Source of the DNA: a bacterium
Lineage (GTDB): Bacteria > Babelota > Babeliae > Babelales > JAUWHS01
Length of the DNA: 63,172 nt
Assembly (NCBI GenBank): GCA_043818275.1
Contig: JBDRFY010000062.1
Span: forward strand, 1-63,172
Direction of reading: 5' to 3'
In this document: positions 4,024 through 57,303 of the stretch, one piece after another
How positions within the stretch are numbered: position 1 is the first letter of the stretch
Layout of the letters: each line of letters begins with the position of its first letter
Program-made: the position numbers and the translations under genes
Notes under the pieces: generated by a model
What the model saw: the letters and a program-made list of their open reading frames with translations, nothing else
What the model was told of the DNA's origin: nothing
Databases searched by the model: none

Positions 4024-5538
4024 TTAAAAATTGAGTTTAACGGTTCCCATGATTGTTGTTGTACGATAAATTCTTATTCCACTCAACACAGTTTGAAAAG
4101 AGGCCGCAATCTCTATTCCTGGCGCGATTTGATAATCAAGCCCAGAAAAAATATTTAAAGTTCTCCAGCTTGATTCAATCCGATATTTTTCTTTTTCAAA
4201 TAAATCTTCATTTTTCTTGCCATCTGTACGATTTTCAGTAAAAGTTACTGAATCTTTTTCATGTTGTGTATGAATCAGATCAAAGTAAAAAGACAATGAA
4301 TCTAAAAAATTTTCCGCTTTAAATGAAGCATTTGCATACCATGTAACACCTGGTTGTTTTTTAATGTCAGCCACCCATGGATAAATTCCATACTGATATA
4401 AACTTTATGGAATATGAACATTTTTTAGTTCTCTATGGTTAAAAAATGCCGCGCCAAGACCAAATGCAAGTTGAACTGTACCAGGAAAATCCATATTTAA
4501 TGAACCTTGTAACGTCAAACCTGTATAACCATCGTTACCTGTAGCCAAAGAAAATAAATAATCCTCTTTCTTTTTAGCTCCAGTCGGCGCCCAAACACCA
4601 ATAGAAAAAATCGGAATAAATGACATAACATGATCGCCATCTTCGTCACTCAAATGAATTGGATAATTAAAATAAGCTTCAACATGTGTATCTTCCATGC
4701 AAGTTTTGCTATAGCTATCGGCATCTAAATTTACTTCCCCTAAAATATTTTTTAATTTTTGTTCGTTAGTTAAATAACGCTGAATCAAAATAATAGATGA
4801 ATCAGTTACAACTTGTTTACTGGTTTTATCATTAAAAGTTGGATCCTGATGATAATAACAAATGCCAGTTTTTAAATTCATTCCAAACCATTTAAAAAAA
4901 TCAAAATTAAACTTCGAACGTAAACCTAATTTTTCAAAATCAATTGGGACAGAAACGCGACCAAAATATTCACTTTCTTCAAAATTATCAACATCAGTAA
5001 AATTTGTATTTAATACAGGAATTGGTGAAGTCGCAGTTGAATTTGCCTGAGAATCATTATTTTCTAACGCTGTAAAAGGAGGACTTGCAACTTGCGTATT
5101 TGCATTTGCATCCAGAACAACATTTGCCAAAGCTAAAGTTTGATAATAAAGTCCAGCTCCAACATCAGTTCGCAAATTATAACCCGTAAATTGTAAATCA
5201 TAGGGTTTATCGACAGGAGATGAATTAGGAGATTTTTGTACACCATAAAACAATCCCAACATATTCCAGGTGCCAAGCCGATCGCCTTCACCTAACTTAA
5301 AATCACTGTCTTTTCTGTTTCCATTCAGACCACGGCAACCGGAAGAATGTTGATAATATGGAGATAACGCAAAACTAAACCAGGGTTGTTTTTTCTTTGA
5401 ATAATATTTATCTGTTCCTTTAAAATCATAAAAAATTGCGGAATCGTAATAACTGTTCATCGGAACAGAAAATAAATTGGGAAACAAAATAAAAAATAAA
5501 ATAAAAAATGTTATTTTTTTTAATAACTTAATTTTCAT
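4024..5538 (-). pseudogene. Outer-membrane beta-barrel protein paralog interrupted by one in-frame TAA (4405..4407)
   Basis: ORFs 4405..5538 and 4024..4374 share one frame and are collinear with the intact 515-aa paralog at 5898..7445. Compare HIP*SLYQYGIYPWVADIKKQPG with VPSSMYQYGIYPWKTDIKKQPG. Confidence 0.7.
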
Positions 5539-5608
5539 AAATCCCCCTTTCTCCAGAAAAACTCATGTTTGTCAATTAATCAAAGTTGCTATTTTTGAAA
5601 ATTCTAAC

Positions 5609-5826
5609 AAACCCCGTAGGGGTTATAGATAATAGCCTCGGGTTTTAACCAGTGGATATAAAGATACATCAATCTCCGCTCCACCCCATTTCATGGGGTG
5701 AAAGAAATATTTAAAACTTTTATCAAATAATTCTTTCGTACCATAAAATGGCACGATATTATATGGTTAAATTTTCAACCACGGGTTAAAACCCGAGGCT
5801 ATTATCTCCAGTCCCTAACGGGACTT
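5609..5826. repeat. Family-2 composite element: two about 46-nt GC-rich modules in inverted orientation flanking an AT-rich core
   Basis: The left module is aaccccgtaggggttatagataatagcctcgggttttaaccagtgg. The right module is ccacgggttaaaacccgaggctattatctccagtccctaacgggac. The interior carries the hairpins caccccatttcatggggtg and cgtaccataaaatggcacg. A second copy lies at 51256..51515. Confidence 0.8.
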
Positions 5827-5897: not shown

Positions 5898-7445
5898 CTA
5901 GAAATTAAGTGTCATTGACCCTAGGATGGTAGTAGTTCTGTAAACCCGGGCGCCGCTAATAAGAGACTGAAATGAAATGCCAATACTACAAGCCGGCGCA
6001 ACTTTATAATCAAGCCCCATAAAAATATGTTCCGCTCTCCAACTTGATTCATCTATCATTTTTTGTGGCTTAAAATATGCATTATCCTGTTTGAGCTCAA
6101 TTGTATCTTTTCGATGTTCTGTATGAATTAAATCAAAATAAAATGAAAAGCCTTCTATAAAAATTTGCCCCATCATAGAAAAATTTGCGTACCATGTAGC
6201 CCCTGGTTGTTTTTTAATATCTGTTTTCCATGGATAAATTCCATATTGATACATGCTTGATGGCACCCTCTGATTTTCCAAATCTTTTTTTTCAAAATAA
6301 GCGCCACCCAAACCAAAACCTAGCTGAATAGTTCCAGGAAAATCCAAATTTAATGAACCATCAACTGTCAAACCAAGAAATCCATCATTTCCGGTTGGCA
6401 AAGAAAAAGCATAATCCTGTTTAAAATTTGATCCTGATGGAGCCCAAACTCCAACAGCAAGAATAGGGATAAATGTAACCTCTAATTCGCTATCTTTTCC
6501 CTCTAGTTTAATTGGATAATTCATACTAAATTCAATATGTGTATCTTCCATCGCAGTTTTGCTATATCGGTTAACATCAAGGCCAACCTCATTTGCGATA
6601 GCTTCAATTTTTTCTTCATCGGTTAAATAAGTCTGAACTAAAGTTTTACTTTTTTCTGTTGCATTAGGAAAACTCTGATACCATTTACCTTGTTGTCCTG
6701 AAGTTTTATCAACAAATGTTGGTCGCTGCTTGTAATAACAAACACCTGTTTTTACATTCGCGCCAAAATATTGTCCAAAAACAAAATTCAGTTTTGAACG
6801 TAAACCAATTTTTTCAAAATCAATTGGAACAGAAAGTCTGCCAAATTTATCATCAACATCAAAATTTGTTTCATCCGTGAAATTATAAAGTATTTTATCC
6901 GCAGAATCCGGGCCTGTTGCTAAATCAACTTTATCTATTACAGACTCATCAATTTCTTTTTGGGTAAAAACGGTTAACGAAGTTGCATCATTTTTAATTT
7001 TTGTGGCAGTGTCACCATCTACAACAACTCCTGATAAAACTAAATCAGGATATCGCAAATAACGTTGATAATCTCCGGATGGAGGAGTATTAACTTCCAG
7101 TTCTCCCTGAATTAATTCAAATTTATTATCGGTTGGAGAAGCATCCCGACCGTAAAATAATCCCAGCATATTCCACCAACCCAAACGATCACCTTCTCCC
7201 CAATTATTATTATCCGCATCTTTTCTGGTTCCATTCCAACCACGACAGCCGGAAACACATTGCATGTAAGGAGAAATATCGAAAGTAAACCAGGGTTGTT
7301 TTTTGAAATAATATTTATCCACACCGCGAACATTATAAAAAATTGCCTGATCATAAAAATTGTTTAAAGGCAAAGAAAATAACTCTGAAACAATAAACGT
7401 TGAAAGAAATAAAACTAAACAGAAAGTTTTTTTAATGAACTTCAT
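5898..7445 (-). CDS. Outer-membrane beta-barrel protein (lineage-specific family, signal peptide, C-terminal Phe)
   Basis: 515 aa with an N-terminal signal peptide, alternating beta-strand-like segments and the terminal ...TTTILGSMTLNF. It is a paralog of 4024..5538. Confidence 0.6.
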   Translation of the reverse strand: MKFIKKTFCLVLFLSTFIVSELFSLPLNNFYDQAIFYNVRGVDKYYFKKQPWFTFDISPYMQCVSGCRGWNGTRKDADNNNWGEGDRLGWWNMLGLFYGRDASPTDNKFELIQGELEVNTPPSGDYQRYLRYPDLVLSGVVVDGDTATKIKNDATSLTVFTQKEIDESVIDKVDLATGPDSADKILYNFTDETNFDVDDKFGRLSVPIDFEKIGLRSKLNFVFGQYFGANVKTGVCYYKQRPTFVDKTSGQQGKWYQSFPNATEKSKTLVQTYLTDEEKIEAIANEVGLDVNRYSKTAMEDTHIEFSMNYPIKLEGKDSELEVTFIPILAVGVWAPSGSNFKQDYAFSLPTGNDGFLGLTVDGSLNLDFPGTIQLGFGLGGAYFEKKDLENQRVPSSMYQYGIYPWKTDIKKQPGATWYANFSMMGQIFIEGFSFYFDLIHTEHRKDTIELKQDNAYFKPQKMIDESSWRAEHIFMGLDYKVAPACSIGISFQSLISGARVYRTTTILGSMTLNF

Positions 7446-7530: not shown

Positions 7531-7702
7531 CCCCCCGCTCGCCCTGAGCGTAGTCGAAGGGTTTAATCAGCTACTTAGTCTAACCAGCCTTTTATTGAAT
7601 TGTAAATTTTTATTGCAGAGAAATTTACAACGTCAATAATTCTTATTGCTTTTCAATTACCGCTCGATATCCTTCGACTACGCTCAGGACGAGCGATTGG
7701 GG
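7531..7702. repeat. MITE-like element, about 170 bp, with GC-rich terminal inverted repeats made of family-1 modules
   Basis: The left arm is ccccccgctcgccctgagcgtagtcgaaggg. The right arm is ccttcgactacgctcaggacgagcgattgggg. The AT-rich interior shares ttattgaattNtaaatttttatt with the copy at 57133..57303. Confidence 0.8.
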
Positions 7703-18646: not shown

Positions 18647-19267
18647 TTAATTTTCCGTGATTTCTTCATCTGCTTCAGATTCAATTACTTCGTCTTTTTT
18701 CTCCCGATCATCCTGCTTGTCTTCCGAAGTGCCGCTATTTCGCGGTACGTAGGAGGAAGCTTGTCGAAGGGCTTCAATTTCAACTTCTATTTTTTCTTCA
18801 TTTTTAGATTCTTTATCTTCTTTATTAATTTCATCATTAATTTCCTTCCTTTCCTTTGGTTGGGACAAGAAGCTTTCCATTTTATTTTCTTTCAAAAAAG
18901 AATCTAAATTACCAACTCTAGGAGCTTCCAAAGCTTCTGGCTTAGAATAATCAATTGAAGAATTTGATTGCAAATTCACATCAACGTGACGTAAAACAAC
19001 ATCATTGAACTTAATTTTTAACAAATTATGAAGTTGTTTAAAAAATGAATTTAATGATTCTTTTGGAATCTCATAACGGGTAAGAATATAAATACCATAA
19101 TCATTCTTTTGAACAGGATAAGCAAGCCGACATTTACCCCATGGATCAAAAGTATTAATTCTACCCTTAGAATCCACAAGAATCTTATCAATGCCTTGTT
19201 CTATCTTTGAAATCTCATCGCCTGTTGCTTCTGAACGAAGAAGCATTAACGTTTCATAACGAATCAT
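18647..19267 (-). CDS. rpsF: 30S ribosomal protein S6 with a long acidic C-terminal extension
   Basis: [18 protein letters not shown]... The start is placed at the ATG at 19267, preceded by AGGAGA. The tail contains a GC-rich repeat module. Confidence 0.85.
18702..18773 (-). repeat. Family-1-like GC-rich module inside the rpsF C-terminal extension (sense orientation)
   Basis: The minus strand reads cccttcgacaagcttcctcctacgtaccgcgaaatagcggcacttcggaagacaagcaggatgatcggg and is translated as [24 protein letters not shown]. Confidence 0.65.
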
Positions 19268-19483
19268 AGAAGTGGTTCTCCTAAACATACGGTTTAAAAA
19301 AATTAAAAGGAGATAGCAGCAAAAGCTACTATTGGTACCTAAAACCCTTCAACCTCTCATCAAATTTGAGGCCCTGGGTAATCGGAATCTATTAAAAAAA
19401 TATTCAATCACACGAAAAATTATTGTAACAAAAAAACACTTTTAATCAAGTAAAAAACGATTTAAAAGCACCATTTAATAAGA

Positions 19484-19534
19484 AACGCCGTTCACTCTGA
19501 GAAGCCTTTAGGGCATCTCGAAGGGTACGGCGTT
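19484..19534 (-). repeat. Family-1 module embedded in an 8-bp outer stem
   Basis: aacgccgt...acggcgtt flanks the reverse complement of cccttcgagatgccctaaaggcttctcagagtgaacgg. Confidence 0.7.
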
Positions 19535-19570: not shown

Positions 19571-20269
19571 TTAAGCCATCATTTGATATCTATGAGTTAC
19601 CTTACCGATAACTCTGAAATTATCTTTGCCTCTAACCAAAGCAACTGGTGCTTTTTTGTGGTTTACAGATTCAAGAACAACAAAATCATCCATGTAGTTA
19701 ATTTGCATAATCTCTTTTTGAGGATTTTGCTCATCACCGTATTCAACAGCAACGATATCTCCTGATTTTGTCCATAAACCTGGGCAAATAACCAAATAGT
19801 CTCCATTGACAAATCTTGGAGCTAAAGAGTTATCTTTAATAGATAAACAGAACATTGCATCTGCGTCTTTATTTCCATCATCTGCAAAAACAGGCACGAA
19901 TTTATCTTTGTAACCTGTTGTAGCCTGTAAAACCTGGTTGTTGTAAGCAGATGGTTGACTTGGAATTTGACCAACTACAGGAACAACCTTGATTTGTAAA
20001 TTTGCATTTGTTGAATCAAGATCCTGACCAATAAACTGCAATCTACTATCAACGTTATCTGTTCTCTCTTTTCTAAAAGAAAAAAGATCTGTTGGTTCAA
20101 TTTCAAACGCCCTGGATAGTTTATCTAAAGCATCCTCATTCCAACGTCTTGTTCCGTTTTTAATGTGAGTCAAATAACTTTCAGACATACCGGTTTTTTC
20201 AGCTAAAACTTTGGTAGTCCATCGTCTTTCACGAAGAAGTTCTCTGACACGTAATGCTGTGGTTTTCAT
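19571..20269 (-). CDS. XRE-family HTH plus S24 (LexA/CI-like) peptidase-domain regulator, paralog 1
   Basis: The N-terminal HTH is LAEKTGMSESYLTHIKNGTRRW. The C-terminal S24-like part has DNSLAP...GDYLV...VIGKV. The start is at MKTT, preceded by GGAGG. Confidence 0.7.
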   Translation of the reverse strand: MKTTALRVRELLRERRWTTKVLAEKTGMSESYLTHIKNGTRRWNEDALDKLSRAFEIEPTDLFSFRKERTDNVDSRLQFIGQDLDSTNANLQIKVVPVVGQIPSQPSAYNNQVLQATTGYKDKFVPVFADDGNKDADAMFCLSIKDNSLAPRFVNGDYLVICPGLWTKSGDIVAVEYGDEQNPQKEIMQINYMDDFVVLESVNHKKAPVALVRGKDNFRVIGKVTHRYQMMA

Positions 20270-20691
20270 AATAACCTCCAATCTAAAATATTAGCTAATA
20301 CCAAAAATTGCTAAATTTACATAATTTTAGCTTTCAAAAACTACTCGTCAGCTAACTTCATTAATCTCCAAAGAACAAAGATTTTTGTTTGTTTTTACCG
20401 TATTTTTCAATCTTTGTAACTAAATCTTATACAATTGGAAAATCGTCGTCAAACGCCTGGGGCTGAAACCTGCCGGTTTAAAGCTAAATTCTTTGTTTTT
20501 ATAAAAAAATTAAATTTAATTTTCGATAAAAAAAGTAAAAATGAGTACTTTTATAGAAAAAACATCAAAAATATAGCTATTAATTGATTAATAACCAATT
20601 TGAAATTAGTTTCAAAAAGAATAGAATTTAAATAAAAATAACCAATTATATTTCAAAACAATATAAAATTATCTTATTAAGATTTTTTAAG

Positions 20692-20717
20692 CCGCACAAA
20701 TTGCGCGGATTTTTTTT
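20692..20717. terminator. GC hairpin plus T-run at the 3' end of paralog 2 (the T-run is on the plus strand)
   Basis: ccgcacaaattgcgcgg is followed by tttttttt on the plus strand and preceded by an A-rich stretch. Confidence 0.4.
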
Positions 20718-21392
20718 CTATACAAATCTTTGATATCTATGAATTAATTTGCCAATAACCCTGAAATGATCCTTGCCCTTAATTAAGGCAACCGGAGATT
20801 GCTTATGATTTACAGACTCCAAAACGATAAATTCATCCATATAGGTTATTTGCATTATGGTTCGTACTGTATTTTCATTTCCATATTCAACCGCGGCAAC
20901 ATCTCCAGATCTGGTCCATTCCATAGGAGAAAAAATTAAATAATCTCCTTTTACAAAATTAGGAGCCATTAAATTATTACCAACATGATAACAAAAAAGG
21001 GAATCATCCAAACTATTAAAAACAGGAACAAAAATATCCTTAAACCCTGTAGTTACCTGTGTTACCTGATTATTATAAGGAGAAGGATCGGCAGGAATTT
21101 CACCAACAATGGGAACAATTCTTAATTGAAGGTCTACATCAATTGCTTGTGCAATTGAAACAGATTTTTCAACATCATCAGTTCTACTCTTTTTTTGAAC
21201 AAAAAGATCAACAGGATGCGCCCCAAAAGCATCTGCCAATTTTCTTAGAGCATCTTCGTTCCAACGACGAGTTCCATTTTTAATATGAGTTAAATAACTT
21301 TCTGAAAGACCCGTTTTTTCGGCCAAAACCTTGGTTGTCCACCCACGTTCCCGTAACAATTCTTTAACTCTTAATGATGTTGAGGTCGCCAT
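20718..21392 (-). CDS. XRE-family HTH plus S24-like domain regulator, paralog 2
   Basis: Highly similar to paralog 1 (LRVKELLRERGWTTKVLAEKTGLSESYLTHIKNGTRRWNEDAL). The start is at MATST (ATG at 21392), preceded by AAGGAGGG. Confidence 0.7.
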   Translation of the reverse strand: MATSTSLRVKELLRERGWTTKVLAEKTGLSESYLTHIKNGTRRWNEDALRKLADAFGAHPVDLFVQKKSRTDDVEKSVSIAQAIDVDLQLRIVPIVGEIPADPSPYNNQVTQVTTGFKDIFVPVFNSLDDSLFCYHVGNNLMAPNFVKGDYLIFSPMEWTRSGDVAAVEYGNENTVRTIMQITYMDEFIVLESVNHKQSPVALIKGKDHFRVIGKLIHRYQRFV

Positions 21393-21579
21393 ATGACCAC
21401 CCTCCTTTTTAACATTTTTATTTTCAATAATGACAACAAATAATAATGCCAGCATCATAGATTCTGTCAAATAGAAAACATATTGTATTTTGTAGCCAAG
21501 ACTTTTTGCTTTAGTTATAATTTGCAAAATATTTTTAAAATTTTTCATAATTACTCAAAAGTAATTCGAATAATAAAAA

Positions 21580-22326
21580 ATGCTGAAAAAAAATAAAAAA
21601 CTTAAATACCCTAAAAATTATTTTGAAAAAAAAGCCTGGCAAGAAAATTTATATGTTTGTGGTATTGATGAGGTTGGTCGTGGATGCTTTGCCGGACCGC
21701 TTGTAGTTAGCGCTGCAATTTTACCAATTAATACAAAACATAAATTACTTAAAGATTCAAAAGTTTTAACAGAACAGGAACGTGAACTTGCATATGAATG
21801 GTTAATTAAAAGATGTTTTTATTCAACAGCAATTATAAGTAACCAACAAATTGATAAAATAAATATTTATCAGGCCACAAAACTGGCCATGAAAAAAACG
21901 TTCTATCAAATTTTGCAAACAATTCCTTTTGATTCAAAAAAATTAAAATCTCTTTTAATTGATGCCATCCCGGTAGACCTGGAACAAATTTATAAAAAAG
22001 AAAATCTTGAAGTTTTTTCGATGAATTATGGCGAAAGCATTTCGACTTCAATTGCAGCTGCTTCAATTATTGCAAAAGTTACACGTGATAATTTAATGAA
22101 AAAAATACATAAAATATTTCCCTCTTTTAAGCTTGATCAACATAAAGGTTATGGAACTCAATTACATAGAAATTTAATTATAAATAATGGAATAAGTATT
22201 ATTCACAGAAAAACGTTTGTCTCAAGTACCATAACTCAAAATACCGCCATTCAAGCTTGCTTAACACAAAATACTTCGGTAGCCCAAAAGGAAAAAAATG
22301 ACAAACAAACAAGCTTATTTCGCTGA
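21580..22326 (+). CDS. rnhB: Ribonuclease HII
   Basis: GIDEVGRGCFAGPLV active-site motif and the KGYGT motif. Confidence 0.85.
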   Translation: MLKKNKKLKYPKNYFEKKAWQENLYVCGIDEVGRGCFAGPLVVSAAILPINTKHKLLKDSKVLTEQERELAYEWLIKRCFYSTAIISNQQIDKINIYQATKLAMKKTFYQILQTIPFDSKKLKSLLIDAIPVDLEQIYKKENLEVFSMNYGESISTSIAAASIIAKVTRDNLMKKIHKIFPSFKLDQHKGYGTQLHRNLIINNGISIIHRKTFVSSTITQNTAIQACLTQNTSVAQKEKNDKQTSLFR

Positions 22327-22993
22327 AGTTATCGAAAGTTCACTTGATAATTTTCTCGCTCAGTGTTGGCAATGGGATTTTTTTCCAGAATTTGGCTCCC
22401 TAATTCAGGCACAAAACGAAGATATATTAACTTTAGGAGTTGTAACCCAAATTCAAACAGGGTCTATGGATCCCATGCGATATCCATTCGCATATCAAAA
22501 AACAGAAGAAGAATTAATAGAACAACAACCACAAATATTTGAATTTTTAAAAACAACTTTTAAAGTTCAAATAATTGGTTTTGCAAATTCTAAAAAATCT
22601 CCCGTTCGTCCTGCGTGCCCATCGAAGTCCCGTTTCGAGGCGGGACGAAGACTGGAGGAACCCAAGGGGCATCTCGAAGGATATTCCGAAAAAAATAATT
22701 TTTATTATCATCTTCCGTCAAAACCTTGTAAAATCCACAGTTTTATAAAAAAAGCTGATAAAGAATTAAGCTCCCTTTTTTTTAGCAACCCTGATTTTTT
22801 ACATATGCTTTTTGGTTATTCAAGCCAAATAACAAATCTGGATGAATTATTAATAACTATTTTAAAAAATCTGAAAATAAACAATGAACTTACTTCTTCA
22901 AACCTTAGTAATTTCTGTCAGACATTCTCTATTTTGACAAATAATGACTATAGAAGAATGAAGTCATTTTTATGCAGAATAGAAAGTTTATAA
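22298..22993 (+). CDS. Hypothetical protein carrying an in-frame GC-rich repeat insertion
   Basis: 231-aa ORF overlapping the rnhB 3' end. Its residues SPVRPACPSKSRFEAGRRLEEPKGHLEGYS are encoded by the GC-rich island. Confidence 0.45.
   Translation: MTNKQAYFAEVIESSLDNFLAQCWQWDFFPEFGSLIQAQNEDILTLGVVTQIQTGSMDPMRYPFAYQKTEEELIEQQPQIFEFLKTTFKVQIIGFANSKKSPVRPACPSKSRFEAGRRLEEPKGHLEGYSEKNNFYYHLPSKPCKIHSFIKKADKELSSLFFSNPDFLHMLFGYSSQITNLDELLITILKNLKINNELTSSNLSNFCQTFSILTNNDYRRMKSFLCRIESL
22598..22688 (-). repeat. Family-1 module (long variant) inside a CDS, antisense to the mRNA
   Basis: The plus strand reads cccgttcgtcctg...gtcccgtttcgaggcgggac...ggcatctcgaagg, with termini matching the reverse complement of CCCTTCGAG...CAGGATGAACGGG. 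Confidence 0.7.
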
Positions 22994-23051: not shown

Positions 23052-23942
23052 ATGTTTGGTTTAATAAAAGACAAATTTCAAAAAATATATGACGGTTTTA
23101 CAAAAAAAGCATTTTCAATATTTTCAAATAATAAACTTGATGAAAAATTTATAACAGAGCTCTACGCCCTTTTAATTTCTGCTGACACAGGCGTTGAAAC
23201 TACAAATCAATTAATTGAAAAATTAAAAAATGACATAGCCAATCAAAAAATTAGAAGCCTTGAACAAGCAAAAGAAGAGCTTGAAAAATTATTAATAAAT
23301 CATTTAAAAATTCATACTTCTATTGAATTAGAACCTAAAATATTACTTTTAGTTGGTGTCAATGGAAGCGGTAAAACAACGTTTGCCGCAAAAATTGCCA
23401 ATAAATTAAAAGAAAAAAATAAAAAAGTTTTATTAGTGGCTGGGGACACATTTCGGGCAGCTGCCACAGAACAACTAGATAATTGGGGCAAAAAAATCGG
23501 TGTTGAAGTTTTTATTGGTAAACAAAATCAGGATCCGGCCTCTGTTATATTTGATGCCTGCACATATTTTGAAAAACAAAAATTTGATCATATAATTATA
23601 GACACTGCAGGCAGACTTCAATCAAAAACTAATTTGATGAAAGAATTAGAAAAAATAAAAAAAATAATTTCAAAAAAACTGCAAAATACAAAAACAAGCA
23701 CCTGGCTGACAATTGACAGTATGTTAGGTCAAAATTCTTTAGCTCAGGCAGAAATTTTTAATGATGCAACACAGTTATCAGGAATTGTATTAACCAAGCT
23801 TGACGGTACCGCAAAAGGTGGTATCGTATTTTCTGTAACACAAAACCTTAAACTCCCAATAACATATGTGACATTTGGAGAAAAACTTGATGATATTTCA
23901 AAATTCAAACCAGAAGAATTTGTAACAAGTTTATTTGAATAA
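23052..23942 (+). CDS. ftsY: Signal recognition particle receptor FtsY
   Basis: GVNGSGKTTFAAKIA, DTAGRL and TKLDGTAKGG motifs. Confidence 0.9.
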   Translation: MFGLIKDKFQKIYDGFTKKAFSIFSNNKLDEKFITELYALLISADTGVETTNQLIEKLKNDIANQKIRSLEQAKEELEKLLINHLKIHTSIELEPKILLLVGVNGSGKTTFAAKIANKLKEKNKKVLLVAGDTFRAAATEQLDNWGKKIGVEVFIGKQNQDPASVIFDACTYFEKQKFDHIIIDTAGRLQSKTNLMKELEKIKKIISKKLQNTKTSTWLTIDSMLGQNSLAQAEIFNDATQLSGIVLTKLDGTAKGGIVFSVTQNLKLPITYVTFGEKLDDISKFKPEEFVTSLFE

Positions 23943-51215: not shown

Positions 51216-51515
51216 CCGTACCCTAAGGGCACGGAACCTATGTTAATTATTCAATCCACGGGTTAAAACCCGAGGCTAATAACTATAACCCCTAACGGGG
51301 TTTTAAACACTTTGCATTTTAAACAATCAAACAATTTTCAAAACATATAAAGAGAAGTATAATACAGAACAATTCAACAAAATTAAATAAAATAAAACCA
51401 AATTTATAACCTTTGAAATTTAAATTAACCCTGCTAAGGGTTATAGTTAATAGCCTTCAGCCTACGCATCGCAAATAGCCGTGCTTCGGCGGACAGGCTG
51501 GGTTTTAACCCGTGG
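51216..51515. repeat. Second family-2 composite element (modules in the opposite relative arrangement; the right module is interrupted by a nested GC-rich insert)
   Basis: The left module is ccacgggttaaaacccgaggctaataactataacccctaacggggtt (51256-51302). The right module is aaccctgctaagggttatagttaatagcc[ttcagcctacgcatcgcaaatagccgtgcttcggcggacaggc]tgggttttaacccgtgg (51427-51515). An upstream hairpin ccgtaccctaagggcacgg lies at 51216-51234. Confidence 0.8.
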
Positions 51516-57132: not shown

Positions 57133-57303
57133 CCCTCTTCCGCTCGCCCTGAGCGTAGTCGAAGGGTTTCAAACAATAAACGATTAAAAATCGCCTATTG
57201 AATTATAAATTTTTATTACATCTATTTTTACATATAAAATAATTTTTATTGCCATTGACAATTATTCTCAACCCTTCGACTTCGCTCAGGGCGAGCGGAA
57301 AAG
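57133..57303. repeat. Second copy of the about 170-bp MITE-like element with family-1 terminal inverted repeats
   Basis: The left arm is ccctcttccgctcgccctgagcgtagtcgaaggg. The right arm is cccttcgacttcgctcagggcgagcggaaaag. The interior is similar to the copy at 7531..7702. Confidence 0.8.

Follow-up and report, generated by a model that had tools for sequence, protein, structure and literature searches.

How does a GC-rich, repeat-like segment come to lie in frame inside a conserved gene of an AT-rich bacterial genome, and what does it become once it is there? The question is raised by a locus in a 63,172-nucleotide (nt) stretch from a member of the phylum Dependentiae (contig JBDRFY010000062.1 of assembly GCA_043818275.1), which was analyzed in its full length and is referred to here as the window; it is contig C62 of a 1.33-Mb assembly with a GC content of 30.8%. 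Window positions 22599-22687 hold a GC-rich island that is an antisense copy of a dispersed repeat, which we call family-1, and the island lies within a gene encoding a protein of 231 amino acids. We consider it likely that this copy, a GC-rich hairpin repeat of the non-autonomous kind, was built into the gene in two in-frame steps, that it is translated as a disordered surface loop, and that it is a putative derivative of a nuclease cassette.

The repeat copy and its insertion history

The gene, the island and the parts of the island are as follows.
22298-22993, plus strand: host gene, 231 amino acids, between rnhB and ftsY
22599-22687, minus strand: whole composite family-1 island, antisense to the gene; translation about SPVRPACPSKSRFEAGRRLEEPKGHLEGYS
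22601-22612, minus strand: primary-module right-hand (R) terminus, the reverse complement of AGGACGAACGGG; CGTC tag at 22607-22610
22613-22654, minus strand: nested 42-nt inner hairpin module, sense strand CAGTCTTCGTCCCGCCTCGAAACGGGACTTCGATGGGCACGC, at CTC^AGG; adds 14 codons
22627-22646, strand unassigned: innermost hairpin, GTCCCG-TTTCGAGG-CGGGAC
22655-22687, minus strand: remainder of the primary module, including the left-hand (L) terminus CTCGAAGGA (22673-22681) and the shared flank TATTCC

Base composition sets the island apart from its surroundings: GC content is 0.54 in 22600-22699, compared with 0.21-0.35 on both sides (about 25% for the flanks taken together), and that of the insert is 54-68% inside a gene of 32% GC. 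On the sense strand the termini of family-1 read YCCTTCGAS...CAGGRYGARCGG and share CC[CG]TTCG in inverted orientation. The island opens with CCCGTTCGTCCTG (22601-22613), the reverse complement of CAGGACGAACGGG, and closes with the L terminus, the reverse complement of TCCTTCGAG, after which comes TATTCC; the flank motif GGAATA is common to the island and five other family-1 copies. The family-1 pattern CCCGTTCRTCCTG has 8 matches in the window at no more than 2 mismatches, against 0.49 expected. Genome-wide, paired family-1 termini occur 133 times, compared with 0 in a reversed-sequence control, and give 124 non-redundant copies; ten copies lie within the window.

The original prediction, made from sequence alone, had described this island as a family-1 module with reverse-complement termini and an internal 6-bp hairpin, inserted in frame in a hypothetical gene. 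That description holds in each part. The sequence it quoted is located at 22601-22681, with island edges reaching about 22599-22687; the termini match; the hairpin is present (GTCCCG at 22627-22632, CGGGAC at 22641-22646); and the open reading frame (ORF) at 22298-22993 crosses the island without a stop codon, reading ...KKSPVRPACPSKSRFEAGRRLEEPKGHLEGYSEK..., with the R terminus entered as CCC GTT CGT CCT, or P-V-R-P. The comparison with orthologues that it had called for bears out the gene, which was found in 41 of 41 related genomes, and its orthologues are free of the insert. In those genomes tblastn matches split around query residues 99-127. A large protein collection contains 1,199 homologues of the host protein, and the ratio of nonsynonymous to synonymous substitution rates (dN/dS), measured over 197 codons against a same-genus orthologue, is 0.13. 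This is a real gene, and it evolves under purifying selection. The order of rnhB, the host gene and ftsY is kept, and two further assemblies, L177 and L178, share the same gene order. Across the Dependentiae the host protein is a conserved product of roughly 200 amino acids, always encoded between rnhB and ftsY.

Structure prediction places the insert between two well-defined domains. An AlphaFold2 model of the host protein (71 sequences) has a predicted local distance difference test score (pLDDT) of 88 and a predicted template modeling score (pTM) of 0.82, and consists of a beta-barrel at residues 9-97 and a C-terminal strand-plus-helix domain. Foldseek finds its best matches in N-terminal regions of HerA, comprising the HAS-barrel and a helical part and not including the ATPase, and Pfam gives a weak HAS-barrel match. 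On these models the protein appears to combine a HAS-barrel with a helical domain, much as HerA does in its N-terminal part, and to lack the ATPase. The insert, at residues of about 99-133, is modeled as coil with pLDDT values of 49-56, while the flanking domains exceed 90. Such a prediction suggests that the inserted peptide forms a loop at a position compatible with the fold, and that about 30 residues are added to the linker as a disordered surface loop.

Comparison of this linker among relatives shows how it grew. Between the invariant residues G94 and P140, the linker has 11 amino acids in 60 of 80 orthologues and 35 at most, compared with 45 in the window protein. The island is absent from all 80 aligned orthologues and also from L178 and the same-genus genome G001, in which the site is empty; more than 120 orthologues lack the segment. 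L177, an independent Logan assembly whose synteny is identical to that of the window, has at this site a short family-1 module of 39 nt, matching the window copy in orientation and frame (TCC GTT CGC CCT GAG GAG CCC AAC CGG CGT CTC GAA GGG, translated as SVRPEEPNRRLEG). The window copy is colinear with this module, with 32 of 39 bases identical, and contains one clean extra block of 42 nt at 22613-22654, which sits between CCT and GAGG and corresponds to the CTC^AGG core of the sense strand. Every long family-1 member carries an inner hairpin module at that CTC^AGG position. In a three-gene tree the window and L177 are sisters (88/80) inside a clade with G001 and L178 (100/100), and the short form stays in frame across about 24% protein divergence.

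The most parsimonious history suggested by these sequences leads from an empty site to a short module and then to a nested or converted long form. In a first step, the linker of 11 residues that joins the HAS-barrel to the C-terminal domain received, in antisense orientation, a short module of roughly 39-44 nt, which added about 18 codons; this took place in the ancestor shared by the window organism and L177. In a second step, confined to the window lineage, a 42-nt inner hairpin module was gained at CTC^AGG, adding 14 more codons; it could have arrived by nested insertion or been copied from a long family member by gene conversion. Sequence comparison shows both steps, and the frame was kept each time. 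The same linker was also entered elsewhere. In assembly L179 (ENA ERZ23498652), positions 955-1050 hold a family-1-like insertion in sense orientation, opposite to that of the window copy, which reads ...PLDTIFSKEKITRDERSAVSAKSNG... and whose T-R-D-E-R is the favored sense frame described below. This insertion is independent of the one in the window, and the linker is therefore a permissive site.

Nuclease cassettes and the spread of family-1

Family-1 is largely a population of paired, intergenic hairpins. Intergenic regions make up 11% of the genome and hold 70 of the 124 copies, a roughly ten-fold enrichment, and 67 of the 124 are paired, mostly in a -/+ arrangement with gaps of up to 200 nt. 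The tag beside the stem is CRYC, distributed as CGTC in 38 copies, CGCC in 33, CATC in 27 and CACC in 16 of the 124. Intragenic and intergenic copies showed no meaningful difference in folding stability. The exact pattern is unevenly spread among 41 Babeliales genomes, with 65 occurrences in this genome, 110 in G023, 35 in G012, 9 in G032, 5 in G038, a few in other genomes of the order and none in the same-genus G001. In addition to the island, the window copies include the following.
58715-58750, plus strand: copy in glmS, antisense in gene 57342-59276 (minus strand), with the same entry frame as the island (PVHPERANASRRAGE)
18704-18771, minus strand: long copy of 68 nt, in sense orientation inside ORF 18647-19288 (minus strand)
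19488-19525, minus strand: intergenic short copy of 38 nt, primary-module subtype (CCCTTCGAGATG...CTCAGAGTGAACGG)
7535-7696, strand unassigned: inverted doublet of 27-nt modules that holds no gene; another such doublet at 57140-57298

The arrangement of these repeats around one type of gene offers a clue to their origin. In this genome each of the two UPF0213-type GIY-YIG genes lies between family-1 modules, the upstream one antisense and the downstream one sense. The resulting cassettes, each about 0.4 kb, are two.
C18:20439-20871: hairpin - GIY-YIG gene - hairpin
C75:30741-31129: hairpin - GIY-YIG gene - hairpin

The flanked nucleases, of about 90 amino acids (roughly 91 for the one encoded at C75:30799-31074), match the UPF0213 structures PDB 1zg2 and 1ywl. 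We compared 12 nuclease loci, one from each of 12 Babeliales genomes (the C75 locus of this genome and 11 homologous loci), and found a family-1-like hairpin beside the nuclease gene in 12 of 12 and on both sides in 7 of 12. At these loci the inner sequence of the hairpin is genome-specific and the termini are conserved. The gene-less doublets are arranged like the ends of GIY-YIG cassettes. Four more small GIY-YIG genes (C50:67836, C18:26387, C21:10479 and C6:11626) lie downstream of tRNA genes and are accompanied by a different hairpin type.

Family-1 thus makes up the terminal inverted hairpins of a UPF0213/YhbQ-type GIY-YIG cassette of roughly 0.4 kb, and the gene-less doublets and singlets are most likely non-autonomous derivatives of it. 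By analogy with the NTS/Ssn system discussed below, recognition of the hairpins by the nuclease would spread or maintain the copies, and mobilization of family-1 by a GIY-YIG nuclease may be envisaged on the same analogy.

It is also conceivable, and in our estimate rather unlikely, that the hairpins are moved by another enzyme, such as a Y1 (RAYT/IS200-like) or IS4-type transposase, or that they spread solely through recombination and gene conversion. The genome contains five intact Y1_Tnp genes; repetitive extragenic palindromes (REPs) of the GTAG type are mobilized by RAYTs (PMC3733652); longer inverted repeats (CTTAGAATT...) run past the hairpins at the C75 cassette; inverted repeats of an IS4-type transposase border some composite elements; and G012 is rich in copies and has no close nuclease homologue. 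Against this stand the presence of a hairpin beside the UPF0213-type gene at every one of the 12 loci and the finding that none of the six Y1_Tnp matches has family-1 nearer than 3 kb, the Y1 genes being flanked by other hairpins; Y1/RAYT was rejected as a partner enzyme on this lack of adjacency. One such locus, C36:2766-3294, has a Y1 (IS200/RAYT-like) transposase gene between its own inverted hairpins (AAGTCCCGCAGCGGGGCGA / TCGCCCCGCAAGCGGGACTT), and may represent a REP/RAYT-type system distinct from family-1.

Reading frames and the encoded peptide

The frames in which family-1 is read were determined for a strict set of 40 copies lying well inside ORFs of at least 150 amino acids, using calls of long ORFs; at 31% GC such calls can be relied on (coding fraction 0.89). 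Frame was scored at the conserved R terminus, as scoring at the L terminus hid the sense bias because internal lengths vary. A census based on the R terminus alone was rejected, since native codons (QDERSQ of release factor) match the motif and are themselves frame-biased.

The original prediction held that intragenic copies would be biased to the one orientation and frame that lacks stop codons. A frame bias does exist, but five of the six family-1 frames are open, the closed one being antisense offset 2 (CC-TGA-G), and each open frame is stop-free in 55-59 of 70 intergenic copies. Nor is there a single orientation, as 26 copies are in sense and 14 in antisense, compared with 21.5 and 18.5 expected. 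Sense copies are distributed among the three frames as 20/2/4, the favored one reading CAG|GRY|GAR|CGG, or Q-G/D-E/D-R (20 copies); the antisense counts are 2/12/0, and here the favored frame reads xCC|GYT|CRY|CCT, or P-x-R/H-P (12 copies). Together the two favored frames account for 32 of the 40 copies, against 18.4 expected from the open frames of each copy (Monte Carlo p < 5e-6). They are also the most hydrophilic: their mean Kyte-Doolittle values are -1.41 and -1.67, compared with -0.68, -0.39 and +0.46 for the other frames, and the frame used is among the two most hydrophilic of the copy in 32 of 40 cases, against 20 expected. Because the favored frames are the most hydrophilic, we read the bias as selection on the encoded peptide and not on stop codons alone. 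Selection thus appears, from these sequences, to act on the peptide, which speaks indirectly for translation of the inserts, and insertions would be filtered into hydrophilic frames by purifying selection on the loop that they encode. In G012 the antisense frames are distributed 6 to 2, in the same direction as here.

The copy in glmS shows how these preferences are shared. It was correctly predicted to be antisense to its gene and entered in the same frame as the island, and CCC GTT CRT CCT is found in both; in glmS the codons are CCC GTT CAT CCT, or PVHP. Both copies use the favored antisense frame, so that their agreement reflects the norm of the family and not a coincidence. Their exits differ, being SRR in glmS and LEG in the copy at 22599-22687. 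The glmS product shows a gap of 9-10 residues relative to Escherichia coli GlmS (4amv), and the gene exceeds its counterparts in G001, G027 and G040 by 10 codons. At window positions 58700-58760 the native six-residue glmS loop (KDYEDR in G001) is unrecognizable. In two other genes, at C46:13179-13230 and C81:4836-4904, the coding sequence ends within an antisense family-1 copy at the TGA of CCTGAG, and these genes take both their stop codon and a new C-terminus from the element.

That the frame bias arises from the way the element inserts, its target motif having a fixed codon phase, and not from selection on the peptide, strikes us as unlikely. Insertions do sit in A-rich, Glu/Lys-rich stretches, in which GAA and AAA codons are phase-biased, and the L177 module is flanked by a direct repeat of 9-10 nt (TCCGAAAAAT / TCCGAAAAT). 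However, the favored sense and antisense frames would need different junction phases at the same R terminus, so that one target phase could not give both, which again argues for peptide selection. The genome-wide data give no flanking-repeat signal, and the favored frames are exactly the two most hydrophilic.

Pure stop avoidance, the cause named by the original prediction, would require that one stop-free orientation and frame be available, and it is improbable as an explanation. In its favor, the closed frame (CC-TGA-G) never occurs inside a long ORF and is found only where a gene ends in the element, and T-variants (CAGGRTGA) have a second closed frame as well. The absence of the closed frame is circular, however, since ORFs define which copies are intragenic, and with five of six frames open in most copies and both orientations in use, avoidance of stops accounts for the 18.4 copies expected from the per-copy test and not for the 32 observed.

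That the insert is missing from the mature protein, through removal from the mRNA, ribosome bypass or decay of the gene to a pseudogene, we regard as very improbable. In yeast mitochondria, translation can bypass GC-rich mobile clusters that lie within AT-rich genes. Against such a scenario, the sequence is in frame and stop-free after two events (54 and 42 nt), purifying selection acts on the gene, the short form is conserved in frame across about 24% protein divergence, and the hydrophilic frames preferred throughout the family can be understood only if the copies are translated. The last alternative, an ancestral segment lost elsewhere or an assembly artefact, is highly improbable: the window does belong to a metagenome-assembled genome, and reads bridging the site were not found, but the segment is missing from more than 120 orthologues, has a GC content of 54-68% in a gene of 32% GC, matches a 124-copy family, and is present in its short form at this very position in the independent assembly L177.

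We return to the account that we prefer, of a cassette-derived repeat accommodated in two in-frame steps and translated as a loop, against which several observations have to be weighed. The nuclease link is loose at the level of genomes: G012 has its 35 copies and only weak nuclease homologues, and several genomes carry the nuclease gene without the exact family-1 pattern. The frame bias rests mainly on one genome. The sense bias was not reproduced in G012, which had only 3 sense copies, and in G023, where most family-1 copies are intergenic doublets, 3 of 9 strict copies are in favored frames, naive ORF calls being unreliable at its GC content of 47%; some host genes are paralogous, so the 40 copies are not all independent events. 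The island as a whole folds no better than shuffled sequence (z = -0.7 as DNA and -0.4 as RNA). Genome-wide, flanking direct repeats are no commoner than in a control of shuffled flank pairs, which argues against a general target-site duplication, and the glmS copy seems to be a loop replacement rather than a simple interruption. Public reads yielded only sparse, low-coverage DNA contigs, none of which crosses the insert, and no RNA.

Known repeat systems and what the locus means

The comparison with Rickettsia palindromic elements (RPEs) that was drawn in the original prediction is apt. RPEs are palindromic repeats found in frame in Rickettsia housekeeping genes (Ogata et al. 2000/2002, summarized in PMC10969869 and PMC3733652). 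As in that case, family-1 consists of dispersed palindromic repeats in the reduced, AT-rich genome of an intracellular bacterium, with many copies in frame in unrelated housekeeping genes and presumably translated as fold-compatible peptide segments; RPEs carry a CGTC tag at one end, and the window copy has CGTC at 22607-22610. The likeness is one of phenomenon and not of compared sequences, and the differences are considerable. Family-1 belongs to the phylum Dependentiae, its units measure 26-80 nt in contrast to about 100-150 nt for RPEs, it is modular and nested with both orientations apparently translated, and it is physically linked to a nuclease gene, a link undescribed for RPEs. Because phylum and unit length differ, family-1 is unlikely to belong to any of the Rickettsia families RPE-1 to RPE-10.

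Three other systems share features with family-1. The CGTC-tagged REPs, to which RPE-4 and RPE-6 have been assigned, have no known transposase (Di Nocera, De Gregorio and Rocco 2013; PMC3733652). They are hairpins of 20-40 nt with a tetranucleotide tag by the stem, form mostly head-to-head dimers, a habit matched by the 67 of 124 family-1 copies that are paired, and encode 20-30 residues in their intragenic copies. In a comparison by description only, family-1 differs in that its tag is degenerate, CRYC, with CGTC in 38 of 124 copies. NTS/SRM repeats are associated with Ssn GIY-YIG single-strand nucleases (Chenal et al. 2025; PMC11893778) and share with family-1 the order hairpin, small single-domain GIY-YIG gene, inverted hairpin, with repeats on both sides of the gene, as well as tens to hundreds of solo copies and the joint variation of repeat and nuclease between genomes. 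In contrast, the SRM motif HGTCWYN(0-2)YYVSBRHN(0-5)WNVSBRGN(0-2)RNCYNB was found in 0 of 124 copies and 0 times genome-wide, and our nuclease matches the UPF0213 structures (1zg2, 1ywl) while that paper names the cd10448 clade. PMC11893778 does not mention in-frame coding copies. Finally, REP/REPIN-RAYT systems also have short hairpins, inverted doublets and a small gene flanked by repeats, whereas family-1 lacks the GTAG tag and its flanked gene encodes a GIY-YIG nuclease, with a different chemistry. Of the two marks of a classical MITE, terminal inverted repeats and a target-site duplication, family-1 has inverted terminal sequence (CC[CG]TTCG), and a flanking direct repeat is seen at the L177 module with no excess of such repeats genome-wide. 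A literature search combining Dependentiae with palindromic repeats returned nothing relevant, and no paper on such repeats was found.

The neighborhood of the host gene and the rest of the window hold further features. The two genes that adjoin the host gene are listed first.
21580-22326, plus strand: rnhB (RNase HII), upstream neighbor; Pfam PF01351, E = 1e-30
23052-23942, plus strand: ftsY, downstream neighbor; Pfam SRP54, E = 4e-74

Upstream of rnhB, at 19582-21548, are two tandem paralogous repressor genes of the helix-turn-helix and peptidase S24 type (LexA/CI-like), recognizable as direct repeats D4 and D6 with 77% identity; the same pair is present in L178. A tandem duplication at 4121-5475 / 5995-7382 comprises about 1.3 kb of coding sequence, 71-82% identical, at a spacing of about 1,853-1,910 nt (repeats D1-D3, D8, D9, D17 and D18). 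A second, unrelated GC-rich repeat family (...CCCCGTAGGGGTTATAG...AGCCTCGGGTTTTAACC...) forms inverted pairs at 5598-5662, 5772-5822 and 51239-51313.

In-frame palindromic insertions are a textbook oddity of Rickettsia genomes; to our knowledge, how they move was never settled, and the enzyme that mobilizes them has long been missing. The locus described here is a genuine and well-documented insertion of the RPE kind in a new phylum, with a preserved intermediate and a nuclease link, and it extends the same phenomenon to an unrelated phylum of intracellular bacteria. A frame bias that goes beyond stop avoidance tracks the hydrophilicity of the peptide, and the consistent adjacency of GIY-YIG genes supplies a concrete candidate enzyme that can be tested cheaply. 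We tentatively suggest, as a proposal that may well need revision, that minimal UPF0213/YhbQ-type GIY-YIG nucleases are the partners of CRYC/CGTC-tagged hairpins, and maybe of RPE-like elements, and that in reduced genomes hairpins filtered into hydrophilic frames constitute a source of new protein segments that can be nested stepwise. The individual copy in the window is probably neutral or nearly so, and we propose no function of its own for it. For annotators of such genomes, GC-rich islands in AT-rich genes are to be read as repeat-derived loops and not as errors. The intermediate in the sister lineage allows the growth of a linker by two repeat insertions to be seen and, if our reading is true, the series from empty site to 39-nt module to 81-nt nest would be an example of the process caught in the act.

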